Assembly (NCBI GenBank): GCA_963774705.1
Contig: CAVZFW010000010.1
Location: 323,706-387,705 of the forward strand
From: an uncultured delta proteobacterium
Lineage (GTDB): Bacteria; Desulfobacterota; Binatia; Binatales; Binataceae
Direction: 5' to 3'
Length of the DNA stretch: 64,000 bases
Positions 13,965 through 17,613 of the stretch are shown here, piece by piece (the first letter of the stretch is position 1; every line of letters starts with the position of its first letter). The notes under the pieces are model-generated. The model was not told where the DNA came from. It worked only from the letters and a program-made list of their open reading frames with translations, and did no database searches. Position numbers and translations under genes: made by a program.

Positions 13965-15699
13965 ATGGCTGACTTCGACATTCAAATCAAGGGCGGCACG
14001 ATCGTCGATGGCACGCGGGTACCTCGCTATCGCGGCGACGTGTGGATCAAGGACGGCAAGGTCGCACAAATCGGCGGGCGGGCACCGGGTTTCGCCAAGA
14101 AAGTGATCGATGCGAGCGGGCTGATCGTCGCGCCCGGATTCGTCGATCTACATACTCATTACGACGCGCAGATTCGCTGGGATCCGTACTGCACGATCTC
14201 GGGATGGCACGGCGTCACCTCGCTCGTGCTGGGCAATTGCGGTTTCGGCTTCGCGCCTTGCAAACCGGAGTTCCGCGACCGCTCGATGCTGACGATGACG
14301 CGTACCGAGGCGATTCCGTACGCGTCGATGAAGGCGGGCATGAACTGGGACTGGGAAACGATCCCGCAGTACATGGATTCGCTCGACCGTTCTCCCAAGG
14401 GCATCAACTGCATCCAGTACATGCCGACCGCGTCGCTGATGACCTACGTGATGGGCCTCGAAGCGGCCAAGACCCGTCCGGCGACGGCGGCGGAACGCGT
14501 CGAGATGGCGCGGCTGCTCGACGAGGGCATGGATGCGGGTCTGTGCGGGTTTTCGATTCAGCGGCTCGGCGTAAACTCGGCGCAGGCCGACTTCGACGGT
14601 TCGCCGATGGTCACCGACACGATGTGCGACGAGGATATTTTCAACCTCGCACGCGTCCTACGGAAGCGTGACGAAGGTTTCATGGAAATCACCCAGGGCA
14701 CCGGCGACGCGCGGCACGATCTCGATTTCGTCGAGCGGTTGGCGGATGAAGCGCGCCGTCCGATCCTGTTCCAGGCCGTCGCGCCGGCGCGCAATAATCC
14801 CGAGATTCATCGTCGCACGCTACGCTGGATCGAGCGCAACCGCGAGAAAGGCCGTTCGATCTTCGGTCAAGGCGCGACGCTGCGCAGCGGTTTCGCCTTT
14901 TCGCTCGAAGACTGGAATCTTTACGACACGCTGCCGGAATGGCGTGTGTTGACGACCGGCACCAAGGAAGAAAAGCTCGCCAAAATGAAGGATCCGGAAC
15001 TGCGCGCGGCGGTCATCCAGGCAAACGACAATGCCGACGCGAATTTCAAGGTCATCCAGGGCGGCGTCGGCGGCCATCCCAAGCATCTGATCGTGCAGTG
15101 GGTCGAGAATATCGAGCGGCTGGAAAAATATGTCGGCAAGTCGCTCGGCCAAATCGGACTGGAAGAGAGCAAGCATCCGATCACCGTGATGCTCGATCTC
15201 GCCGTCGAGACCGATCTGAAGGCCGAGTTCCTTGGCCCCAACCGCGGCTTCAATGCCGGAATTCATGGCTGAGATCATCAACACGTCGCAGTTCACTTTC
15301 CCCGGCGTGTCCGATGGCGGCGCCCACACCAAGTTCTTCACCGGCGGTGCTTTCACGACCGACTTCCTGCGCTGGATGGTGCGCGACGAGCAGCGGATTA
15401 CGCTCGAAGAGGCGCACTACCGCATGTCGGCGCTGCCCGCACATGCGGCCGGTTTCCGCGATCGCGGCGTGCTGCGCGAAGGCGCGGCCGCAGACGTCGT
15501 GGTGTACGACCTCAACGGCCTCGGCATCGAGCCGGACTGGGTCGGCGAAATCGTGCACGATCTACCCGGTGGCGAATGGCGGCGGGTACAGCGCCCGAAG
15601 GGTTACCGCTCGATCATCGTCAACGGCGTAGAGACGTTCAACGAGGGCAATTGCACTGGCGCGACGCCGGGCAAGCTCCTACGTAACGGACACGCCTGA
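13965..15699 (+). pseudogene. N-acyl-D-amino-acid deacylase (D-aminoacylase) family amidohydrolase; frame broken at ~15258
   Basis: N-terminus IKGGTIVDGT...APGFVDLHTHYD...GVTSLVLGNCG (ORF 13965-15272). The C-terminal FPGVSDGGAHTKF...ADVVVYD lies in the next frame (ORF 15232-15699). Removing one g of gccGGaattc restores ...GFNAEFMAEIINTSQFTFPGVSDGGAH. Confidence 0.75.
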
Positions 15700-15721
15700 T
15701 TTGCGGGTGATAATCCTGAGA

Positions 15722-15753
15722 AAGCAGCAGGGGTCTCACGGCTCCTGCTGCTT
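15722..15753 (+). repeat. hairpin element copy A (10-bp stem aagcagcagg/cctgctgctt, loop ggtctcacggct); possible terminator of the upstream gene
   Basis: Read directly. Homologous to copy B at 16076-16105. Confidence 0.7.
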
Positions 15754-15790
15754 ACCGGGTTCACCAAAAAATTCGCCTTAGAGGAGCGTC

Positions 15791-15979
15791 ATGAAACAGA
15801 TAGCACTGTCTTTTCTTGCGGCGGTCTTGCTGATGAGTTCGGGTTTCGGCGTTTACGCCTATTCGAAGACTGCGGATACTCCTGCATGCTGCCAAAATCA
15901 CGAAACTTGCTGCCCCAGTTCATCGTGCTGCGCCGGCGGCAAGCACGCCCATTGTCCGATGATGCATCATCACGCCTGA
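15791..15979 (+). CDS. small secreted Cys/His/Met-rich peptide (62-aa precursor), function unknown, possible metal binder
   Basis: GAGGAG RBS at 15781-15786. Signal peptide MKQIALSFLAAVLLMSSGFGVYA. Mature part YSKTADTPACCQNHETCCPSSSCCAGGKHAHCPMMHHHA has three CC doublets and a HxHCPMMHHH tail. Confidence 0.55.
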   Translation: MKQIALSFLAAVLLMSSGFGVYAYSKTADTPACCQNHETCCPSSSCCAGGKHAHCPMMHHHA

Positions 15980-16075
15980 CCGCACTCCACAACGCCGACC
16001 ACCCGTCTTTCATAGTGGCTGCCCGTACGTGGCTTGGTCGGACACGCGCGATTCGCAGCGGACTAAGTCTCGGGG

Positions 16076-16105
16076 AGCAGCATAGACCTCACGGCCTATG
16101 CTGCT
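16076..16105 (+). repeat. hairpin element copy B (stem agcagcatag/ctatgctgct, loop acctcacggc) followed by T-rich tail; possible bidirectional terminator
   Basis: Read directly. It shares the outer stem, the CTCACGGC loop core and compensatory inner-stem changes with copy A. Confidence 0.7.
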
Positions 16106-16168
16106 TATCTTTCGACGCGCGAAGTCTTGAACAACGATATCCTGACCGCGATCCGAAGAGTGGCACCA

Positions 16169-17530
16169 TCAGGCCGCTTGCCCGACGTTCGAGTTCGGCA
16201 TCGCGGCCAGAAGCGCATCAGGTTTATAGGCGACCCCTCCGCGATATACCGTCGAAAGCCGCCGAAGTTCACGGGTATCACGCAATGGATCTCCGTCCAC
16301 TATGAGGAAGTCGGCGTAACGCCCGGCCGCGATGCTGCCAATATTCTCCTGCTGGCGCAGGTAGCGCGCCGCGACCGAGGTTACCGCCTTGATCGCGGCC
16401 ATCGCCCCGATCGCCTCAGCGAGCAACTCGATCTCGCGGAGCAGGGCAAACCCCGGCGGCGGATACGATAGCCCACCGCAGTCTGTCCCGCCGACCACGA
16501 GACCGCCGCTTTCATGCAGGATGCGGGTAGCGGCCTGATGCTTCTCCAACGCTTTCGCGCCGAGGCCGGGTTCATACATACCTGGATGAATGTCCCAGTC
16601 CGGGCGTTCACCCATATGCTTGAACATCGCCCGCTGACGCGCCAGCGCTTTCGGCGGAACATAGCGACGGTCGGGGTCGCGCTGCGCAGCGTCGCTCCCG
16701 AACTTGGCAATCCATAACAGATCGAGCGTGGTGCCCATGTTGACCTGCTTATCCACCATCGCGCCGAACCACGTTCGTGCGCCTTCGCCCTGCAGATCCG
16801 CCTCTTCCCAGCCCTTGGTGATCAAGGTCCAGAAATTGTGATCCATCATCGAGGCCCCGGGCCCGAAGCGCAAATTCAAGGCACAGAACTCGTTGTAGGG
16901 CGAGATCCACATGTGCTCCAAACCGTCGATGCCGAATTTGATCGCATCGAGCGAGTGCGTGTAGCCAAGGTGGGCCGTCACCGGAACGCGCTTATCGACG
17001 AATTCAATGATCGCTTTCGCGGTATCGGGAGGCATCGTGAAATATAGCTTGACCCCGTCCACCCCGGACTTCAGCAGATGACCAATCTTGTCGGGCACCG
17101 CATCCACTGACGGAATGCTGTCGAGGATCTCGCCGAACTCGCCGCCGAAACTTTCGTCCCTTCCATCGAGCAGCGGACCGAGAACAAATAAACGTGGACC
17201 AAGTTGCTTGCCGCTGTTCAGATCTGACCTTAGCTGCAGAACCTTCTCCAGCTTGCCGCCGACGTCGCGCGCGGTGGTCACCCCGGCGGCGAGAAACAAC
17301 GGCAGGCATTCCTGGTCCATCAGGGTCGTGTGAACGTGAGTGTCGATCAGGCCCGGCAGGACCGTTTGCCCCTTCAAGTCGATTACAGTGGCGCCCGGCG
17401 GCTCCGGCATCGCGCCAGTCTCGACCGTCGCAATACGTTCGCCGTTGACCAGGATCGAGACGCCATTGCGCGGCTGATCGGCGATGGAGTCGATTAGCCG
17501 TGCGTTCTTAAACAGGATGCTTTGAGCCAT
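16169..17530 (-). CDS. metal-dependent amidohydrolase family protein
   Basis: LPGLIDTHVHT metal-binding motif and GVTTARDVGG. ATG 17530 (MAQSILFKNARLID) is preferred over the track GTG 17536 because of the GGGGG RBS-like run. Confidence 0.75.
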   Translation of the reverse strand: MAQSILFKNARLIDSIADQPRNGVSILVNGERIATVETGAMPEPPGATVIDLKGQTVLPGLIDTHVHTTLMDQECLPLFLAAGVTTARDVGGKLEKVLQLRSDLNSGKQLGPRLFVLGPLLDGRDESFGGEFGEILDSIPSVDAVPDKIGHLLKSGVDGVKLYFTMPPDTAKAIIEFVDKRVPVTAHLGYTHSLDAIKFGIDGLEHMWISPYNEFCALNLRFGPGASMMDHNFWTLITKGWEEADLQGEGARTWFGAMVDKQVNMGTTLDLLWIAKFGSDAAQRDPDRRYVPPKALARQRAMFKHMGERPDWDIHPGMYEPGLGAKALEKHQAATRILHESGGLVVGGTDCGGLSYPPPGFALLREIELLAEAIGAMAAIKAVTSVAARYLRQQENIGSIAAGRYADFLIVDGDPLRDTRELRRLSTVYRGGVAYKPDALLAAMPNSNVGQAA

Positions 17531-17613
17531 ATTCACCCCCGCGTTTGCCGCGTTTTGGATTTCGCTCGCGTGTATAAAACTGAGATTTGGATCAGCTTAT
17601 CTACTTGGATCAC

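Follow-up and report, generated by a model that had tools for sequence, protein, structure and literature searches.

How did a very short open reading frame (ORF) come to lie between two similar hairpins, and what could its product do? This question is raised by positions 15,722 to 16,105 of a 64,000-nucleotide stretch of DNA (hereinafter the window) from contig C10 of an uncultured bacterium of the family Binataceae, class Binatia. Binatia are abundant, uncultured soil bacteria, for which a reliance on copper enzymes in methylotrophy and alkane oxidation has been predicted (PMC8262859). An earlier note, made from the sequence alone, described here a gene of a secreted cysteine-rich peptide between two hairpins of a structured repeat family. 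Comparison with homologs shows that the ORF at 15791-15979 is a functional gene under purifying selection, with a predicted Sec-type exported micro-protein of 39 residues as its product. Alignment of the flanks shows the two hairpins to be parts of one direct repeat of about 70 nt that brackets a 282-nt segment with the peptide gene. The explanation of the whole locus that we favor, and to which we give an about even chance, is that a real gene was relocated, that the hairpins belong to a single gene-end repeat, and that the peptide binds a soft metal in the periplasm.

The peptide gene and its family

The gene has the following parts.

15791..15979, + strand: peptide gene, 62 codons and a stop codon; homologs keep all seven cysteines, and the ratio of nonsynonymous to synonymous substitution rates (dN/dS) is 0.12-0.32
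15780-15786, + strand: Shine-Dalgarno sequence AGAGGAG, 4 nt ahead of the ATG (read from the sequence)
15791-15859, + strand: signal peptide, codons 1-23
15860-15976, + strand: mature peptide, 39 aa

The 62-codon ORF is present with the sequence given in the earlier note (translation MKQIALSFLAAVLLMSSGFGVYAYSKTADTPACCQNHETCCPSSSCCAGGKHAHCPMMHHHA), and the strong ribosome-binding site and the Sec-type signal peptide described there also hold. The N-terminus has the n-h-c layout MK-QIALSFLAAVLLMSSGFG-VYA|YS, in which the positive n-region, the hydrophobic h-region and the small residues at positions -3 and -1 are those of a Sec-type signal, judged by inspection. The same layout is found in all 59 aligned homologs. 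Neither a lipobox nor a twin-arginine motif was seen on inspection of the signal region. Seven of the 39 residues of the mature peptide (18%) are cysteines, namely three vicinal pairs and a single one. The earlier note had described these cysteines correctly and had counted about 38 residues, one fewer than there are. An AlphaFold model made from the alignment of 59 sequences shows residues 2-16 as a helix. The confidence of this model is low (predicted local distance difference test, pLDDT, 62; predicted template modeling score, pTM, 0.28), and it was too poor for a fold search.

Homologs with the conserved spacing of cysteines, on which the earlier note had made the reality of the peptide depend, do exist. 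A word-indexed search revealed three homologs of 62 residues with 71-82% identity and all cysteines kept. A profile search of 1.84 billion representatives gave 35 clusters, nearly all of 56-73 residues, and a second indexed search gave 62 clusters, among which all named ones are annotated as “hypothetical protein”. The peptides of the family are 60-67 residues long. Among the 59 aligned sequences P31, C33, C34, C41, P42, C46, and C47 are invariant, while C40, H52, and C55 are nearly invariant. Thus the motif P-x-CC-x5-CCP-x3-CC-x2-G-x-H-x(2-6)-C follows the n-h-c signal peptide. Pairwise dN/dS of five gene copies spans the above range overall and is 0.04-0.28 in the mature part.

The peptide gene was found in 63 of the 165 genomes of Binataceae, which represent 12 of its 30 genera, mostly as a single copy. 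It is absent from all 12 further genomes that belong to the same genus as the window. The window peptide has only a compositional sub-threshold match to LSR in Pfam and none in NCBIfam. The results show that the family lacks a name and has so far been found only in Binataceae-type genomes. A somewhat similar protein (P0038, 115 aa) with a Bacteroidota-like look is present in the representative library. It has a signal peptide followed by PPCC-x5-CC-x5-CC and then a sub-threshold LTXXQ (Spy/CpxP/ZraP-like) region; the match of the family profile to it has an E-value of only 9.5e-4.

The direct repeat around the gene

The repeat involves the 3' end of the upstream gene, which encodes a D-aminoacylase-type amidohydrolase. 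Its elements and the segment between them are listed below.

15686..15755, + strand: left repeat copy, consisting of the gene end CGGACACGCC with TGA, a 23-nt spacer, hairpin A, and TTA
15723..15752, + strand: hairpin A (CTTACCGGG), a 13-pair stem with a TCAC loop and no T-tract after it
15756..16037, + strand: 282-nt segment between the repeats, made up of a 35-nt leader that contains the Shine-Dalgarno sequence, the 189-nt peptide gene, and a 58-nt trailer (the bounds are the ends of the repeat alignment)
16038..16108, + strand: right repeat copy, in which a D-aminoacylase pseudo 3' end that has lost its stop codon (CGGACACGCGCGA) is followed by a spacer containing a degenerate -10 box, then by hairpin B and TTA
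16076..16105, + strand: hairpin B, 12 of 13 pairs, with the same TCAC loop and then the T-rich tail TTATCTTTCG

The earlier note gave both hairpins with the right letters and with positions shifted by one base. It missed that the similarity between them continues for 37 nt upstream of each hairpin. Both repeat copies begin with the gene end CGGACACGC: the left one starts with the final 10 nt of the D-aminoacylase gene and its stop codon, and the right one has CGGACACGCG CGA in place of CGGACACGCC TGA. The copies align at 50 of 71 positions. The score of the local alignment of 15686-15755 with 16038-16108 is 36, compared with 15.8 +/- 2.3 for shuffled sequences. An independent repeat search found the same similarity as two collinear families, D1 and D2, with spacings of 353 and 352. 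No significant similarity extends the repeat into the coding region or beyond the hairpin. A third small repeat (D3, 15975 / 16141) was rejected as it is at chance level by estimate.

The hairpins themselves are identical at 23 of 30 bases, as the earlier estimate of about three quarters had it, and differ at seven. Their folding energies are -30.6 kcal/mol for hairpin A (z-score -5.4) and -22 kcal/mol for hairpin B (z-score -4.3). For the pattern of bases common to both, shuffling of the window gives an expectation of 0.00 occurrences. The compensatory changes of the inner stem described in the note are real: stem pairs 8/23 and 9/22 are swapped on both sides, from G-C in hairpin A to U-A and A-U in hairpin B. 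In addition, two wobble pairs of A are Watson-Crick pairs in B, and one pair has become an A.C mismatch. When seven random substitutions were simulated, at least 12 of the 13 pairs were kept in 1.4% of trials (p = 0.014).

A different explanation would make the hairpins members of a dispersed structured repeat family (similar to repetitive extragenic palindromic sequences, REP, or bacterial interspersed mosaic elements, BIME) or recombination sites of cassettes (attC-like). The compensatory changes would agree with it, as would the direct orientation of the hairpins around a small gene without a conserved promoter of its own, and the tandem hairpin unit with a 37-nt period in two related loci, L004 and L005. 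However, a genome search for the hairpin pattern with up to two mismatches returned just the two copies in 4.03 Mb, with the reservation that the genome is 65% complete and a few more copies are possible. No further copies of either 90-nt segment were found by blastn-short. A search of 150 genomes of the family with a looser pattern gave hits at a rate moderately above that of the reversed-pattern control, close to chance, with no matching palindrome, and an exact scan of metagenome contigs gave seven matches, all in unrelated sequences. Part of the repeat is coding sequence from the upstream gene, which is a further argument against a dispersed family. As for integron cassettes, attC sites are 57-141 bp long and have R''/L''/L'/R' boxes with the GTTRRRY core. 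The window hairpins have no GTTRRRY/RYYYAAC core, and their near-perfect stem of 30 nt is shorter than any attC. The best match to the integron integrase model TIGR02249 in the genome, again at 65% completeness, has 77.6 bits against a cut-off of 265. The hairpins are homologous and structure-preserving, a repeat family is not supported, and the chance that the dispersed-repeat or attC explanation is right is very slight. Among the earlier suggestions, the cassette boundaries came nearest to the truth, in that the repeat does bracket an inserted gene, though not an integron cassette.

What the repeat consists of is suggested by other genomes. Orthologs of the D-aminoacylase gene in the same genus (80-87% identical) have canonical terminators, a GC-rich stem with a T-tract, about 20-60 nt after the stop codon and no peptide gene there. 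Therefore the hairpin stands where the D-aminoacylase terminator belongs. Like Rho-independent terminators, both hairpins are GC-rich stem-loops, they occupy the terminator position of the orthologs, and B has a T-rich tail. Unlike them, A has no T-tract (the sequence after it is TTACCGGGTT / TTACCGGG), and A and B are paralogous copies that did not evolve independently. Hairpin B is a likely terminator of the peptide transcript, as judged by its tail and position.

The arrangement resembles the att-type direct repeats that remain when DNA integrates at the 3' end of a gene, as with integrative elements and their decayed remnants without an integrase (cis-mobilizable elements, CIMEs). As in these elements, direct repeats with the 3' end of the target gene flank inserted DNA: the proximal copy of the target end is intact, the distal copy is a displaced pseudo-end, and the cargo is bracketed. 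The differences are that the cargo is 282 nt long and contains no recombinase, that the copies are 70% identical instead of nearly identical, and that the target is the terminator of a protein gene instead of a tRNA gene. A clean empty site was not found in the genomes of the same genus, where the D-aminoacylase orthologs have other downstream neighbors.

We propose that the repeat could have arisen beside the D-aminoacylase terminator, either with the insertion of the gene or through a local rearrangement at a later time. The right copy would have kept the T-rich tail and would terminate the peptide transcript. The left copy would have lost its tail; it is now preceded by a promoter-like site and followed by the ribosome-binding site. 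It might thereby let transcription run into the peptide gene and form a 5' stem or a part of a read-through transcript. Selection on the structure of the RNA, or else repair templated by the hairpin, may have preserved the stem pairing. The promoter and terminator roles are predictions. The promoter-like site is the following.

15687..15714, + strand: candidate sigma-70-like promoter CGGACA-16 nt-GATAAT, predicted by a consensus scan with 9 of 12 matches

A transcript from it is predicted to begin about at hairpin A. For genome scans the locus provides a caution: paired “homologous structured hairpins” can be one local duplication of a gene end and its terminator that marks an insertion.

Relatives of the locus and relocation of the gene

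Locus L003 is syntenic with the window, with 87% identity over 4.3 kb up to the stop codon of the peptide gene, and hairpin A is orthologous there. Loci L004 and L005 have only the upstream side in common with the window. We compared both repeat copies with the L003 unit and counted the sites at which one sequence alone differs: 14 for the right copy, eight for L003, and six for the left copy. Therefore the duplication dates from roughly the time when the window lineage and L003 separated, and the fastest evolution is, by these counts, that of the right copy. The tandem duplication of the hairpin unit mentioned above is located in L004 at 41-114 and is the same in L005 (ATACAGCAGGGGCATCTCGGCCCCTGCTGGTTACCATC, twice); the downstream gene in both loci differs from that of the window. 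The structures of the relatives differ, and therefore the region downstream of the D-aminoacylase gene is a rearrangement-prone spot. The agreement in length between the intergenic regions of the window and L003 (189 - 70 = 119 nt) was discarded as probably a coincidence (z-score about 1).

A changeable location is also seen for an identical protein encoded on a module of about 380 nt (134 nt upstream, the peptide gene, and 59 nt downstream) in three unlike neighborhoods. The copies of this module are 93-96% identical.

L006 4868-5248: module of about 380 nt
L007 2514-2888: the same module
L008 1617-1992: the same module

In L006 an rve-type transposase gene lies 600 nt downstream of the module. 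A 126-nt piece of its end (L006 7392-7517) recurs in L010 with 90% identity and in inverted orientation, 560 nt upstream of the peptide gene there.

The usual neighborhood of the gene is seen on long contigs of Candidatus Binatus, where the order is xseA, xseB, tlyA, (ROK), a LysM protein, the peptide, a secreted protein of about 120 residues (hereinafter the partner), and a DUF2231 membrane protein. By comparison of coordinates, the peptide gene is directly upstream of the partner gene and co-oriented with it in 40 of the 63 genomes, which belong to six genera. In the other 23 genomes, including all 15 of one genus, the two genes are on different contigs. The partner family includes 342 found proteins, none of them named, and has no Pfam family. 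Its invariant residues are C45, H56, C59, and C63, that is, C-x13-C-x3-C and a histidine. The partner gene, paired with a DUF2231 gene, is present in 140 of the 165 Binataceae genomes; all 12 other genomes of the window's genus have the partner gene. The AlphaFold model of the partner has a pLDDT of 65, and Foldseek gave only weak OB-fold matches to it (E > 0.005, template modeling score about 0.4), with the periplasmic silver/copper chaperone SilF at rank 48 among them. The pair is located as follows.

L081 3912-4775: partner and DUF2231 genes in the window's own genome (contig C3)
L082 6231-7125: partner and DUF2231 genes

The copy in the window is the sole peptide gene of its genome. It is at a secondary site because the same genome keeps the LysM-partner-DUF2231 string on contig C3 without a peptide gene; the gap between the LysM and partner genes is 53 nt there. 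By this gene order and by the places of its relatives, the window peptide gene was relocated, or was acquired separately, and belongs to a clade of the family that looks mobile. Its present neighbors on C10 are two convergent amidohydrolase genes.

13965..15699, + strand: D-aminoacylase-type amidohydrolase gene, Pfam Amidohydro_3 on both halves
16169..17536, - strand: convergent amidohydrolase gene that closes the intergenic region, Pfam Amidohydro_1, also present in L003

The D-aminoacylase gene consists of two overlapping ORFs (13965-15272 and 15232-15699), and its ortholog in L003 is intact and encodes 577 aa. Either the gene is a pseudogene with a frameshift, or the split is an error of the assembly. 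A search of Rfam with positions 14500-17500 (E <= 1) gave only a chance-level match to a small RNA, inside the upstream gene.

Yet another location of the peptide gene is characteristic of one genus, in which the gene lies between zwf and a thiolase-like gene. A conserved palindromic block follows the gene there (L066 1318-1338 and the equivalents in L051-L065), with TTATCCACA / TGTGGATAA (DnaA-box-like) or CTGTTGATAAC...CTGTCGA. Adjacency to dnaA in this genus was considered and rejected, since the real neighbors are zwf and the thiolase gene.

Possible role of the peptide

Our best guess on the function, and the least certain part of the explanation, is that the mature peptide binds a soft metal in the periplasm, most likely Cu(I), although Zn, Cd, or Hg are possible. 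The metal would be held by a thiolate cluster of the three vicinal cysteine pairs and the seventh cysteine together with His and Met residues, and the peptide might act as an unmodified metallothionein-like buffer or chaperone. The argument for a metal is the presence of seven invariant or nearly invariant cysteines, an odd number, with a conserved histidine and a Cys-[Pro/Ala]-[Met/Leu]-His-rich tail. In Cox17 vicinal cysteine pairs serve to bind Cu(I), in MerT and MerA they bind Hg(II), and the Pro-x-Cys-Cys of the window peptide resembles the KPCC copper site of Cox17. The low pLDDT of the peptide model would be expected if the fold depended on a bound metal. Like metallothioneins (SmtA/BmtA, MymT), the peptide is very short, rich in cysteine, and predicted to be disordered without metal, whereas the bacterial metallothioneins described so far are found in the cytoplasm and have no sequence relationship to it, and the peptide has no Pfam match. 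Precedents for periplasmic binding of copper by cysteine thiolates are the tetranuclear cluster of CopG, formed by CxCC, and the exported copper store Csp1 (PMC7558416). In both proteins thiolates, including vicinal ones, hold Cu(I) clusters outside the cytoplasm with the help of Met and His. However, CopG has a thioredoxin fold and Csp1 is a Tat-exported four-helix bundle, whereas our peptide has 39 residues, would be Sec-exported, and shows no confident fold or homology to them.

Several observations weigh against the explanation as a whole. The consensus terminator scan, which needs five T in a window of eight, calls neither hairpin. In loci L003 and L004 the insertion site and hairpin A are the same as in the window, yet there is no right repeat copy, and what follows the stop codon there does not align with the window (z-score about 1). 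The site counts give only the age of the duplication, not the order of insertion, duplication, and loss. No metal-homeostasis gene adjoins the peptide gene in any context examined; its neighbors there are xseAB, tlyA, ROK, and LysM genes, amidohydrolase genes, zwf, and the thiolase gene. The likeness of the partner to OB-fold proteins and SilF is weak and comes from a model with a pLDDT of 65. The link to the partner is loose, with the partner in 140 and the peptide in 63 of the 165 genomes. The His-rich tail varies across the peptide family, and the oxidizing periplasm could favor three disulfides in the peptide.

This last point leads to the strongest alternative. The mature peptide may be a disulfide-knotted secreted peptide, i.e., a signal, an antimicrobial, or an envelope factor, with three disulfides and a merely incidental role of metal. 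Such a role would fit the Sec-type export into an oxidizing compartment and the lack of metal genes nearby. A profile search of the PDB with the peptide gave chance-level matches only, to Cys-rich toxins, and the sole weak ones among them are Cys-knot toxins and trichomaglin (E about 1-4). On the other hand, the number of conserved cysteines is odd, the conserved histidine and the Cys-x-Met/Leu-His tail are typical of metal sites, AlphaFold finds no confident knotted fold (pLDDT 62), and no immunity, export, or receptor gene is found alongside the peptide gene. We regard a disulfide knot as distinctly less probable than the favored explanation, though it has a substantial share of the remaining probability.

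The association with the partner suggests another alternative, in which the OB-like Cys3/His and DUF2231 proteins have the peptide as a thiol-redox or hand-over partner; it would be encoded by an accessory first gene of an envelope module that handles metal, electrons, or another substrate. The co-oriented position directly upstream of both genes in 40 genomes of six genera speaks for it. However, most genomes have the pair of genes without the peptide, and in at least 23 genomes, that of the window among them, the peptide gene and the pair lie apart. The peptide persists apart from the pair and therefore works without adjacency, perhaps without the pair at all. A dedicated hand-over role is thus rather improbable.

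Finally, the earlier note suggested a modified-peptide precursor. In the present terms it would be bufferin-like, with cysteines converted by an MNIO enzyme encoded elsewhere. Bufferins (BufA1/DUF2282 and BufA2/BUF_6/12Cys) are periplasmic copper-binding peptides made by ribosomes and modified after translation (RiPPs), whose precursors also have Sec signals and conserved cysteines (PMC11626156). They resemble our peptide in being small, exported, and rich in conserved cysteines, and they are thought to buffer periplasmic copper. Furthermore, two MNIO genes are present in the window's genome, on contigs C15 and C5. However, the C5 gene has its own cognate BufA2, which served as a positive control: it scores 83.5 bits with NF050166 (cut-off 60), while in the same search the window peptide matches no BufA or other NCBIfam model. 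No MNIO, DUF2063, radical-SAM, or YcaO gene adjoins the peptide gene in the contexts examined. The peptide also has vicinal CC pairs instead of the C-x-G-x-N-x-C-K-G-type repeats of bufferins and is presumably unmodified. Consequently, the precursor suggestion can be kept only as a very unlikely one.

If soft-metal binding is accepted, bufferins and copper-storage proteins could gain in the peptide a counterpart that is periplasmic and unmodified. In the boldest version, the peptide would be the founder of a new class of unmodified, Sec-exported, metallothionein-like peptides with a Cu(I) or other soft-metal cluster, a part of an envelope metal-handling module of Binatia together with the OB-like Cys3/His and DUF2231 proteins, and its gene would be detachable and self-moving. 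We consider this version tentative and clearly less probable than the explanation of the locus given at the beginning. In any case, the peptide points to two uncharacterized partners, the OB-like Cys3/His protein (140/165 genomes) and the DUF2231 protein. A conserved exported peptide of 39 residues with the invariant CC-x5-CC-x4-CC and no database family is also readily synthesized.

The two MNIO genes of the window's genome are in different surroundings. The one on C15 (L103 1471-2331, + strand) is not preceded by an obvious precursor ORF. On C5 a gene of a BufA2-type precursor (L104 2410-2685, - strand) is located directly upstream of the MNIO gene (1426-2250, - strand).

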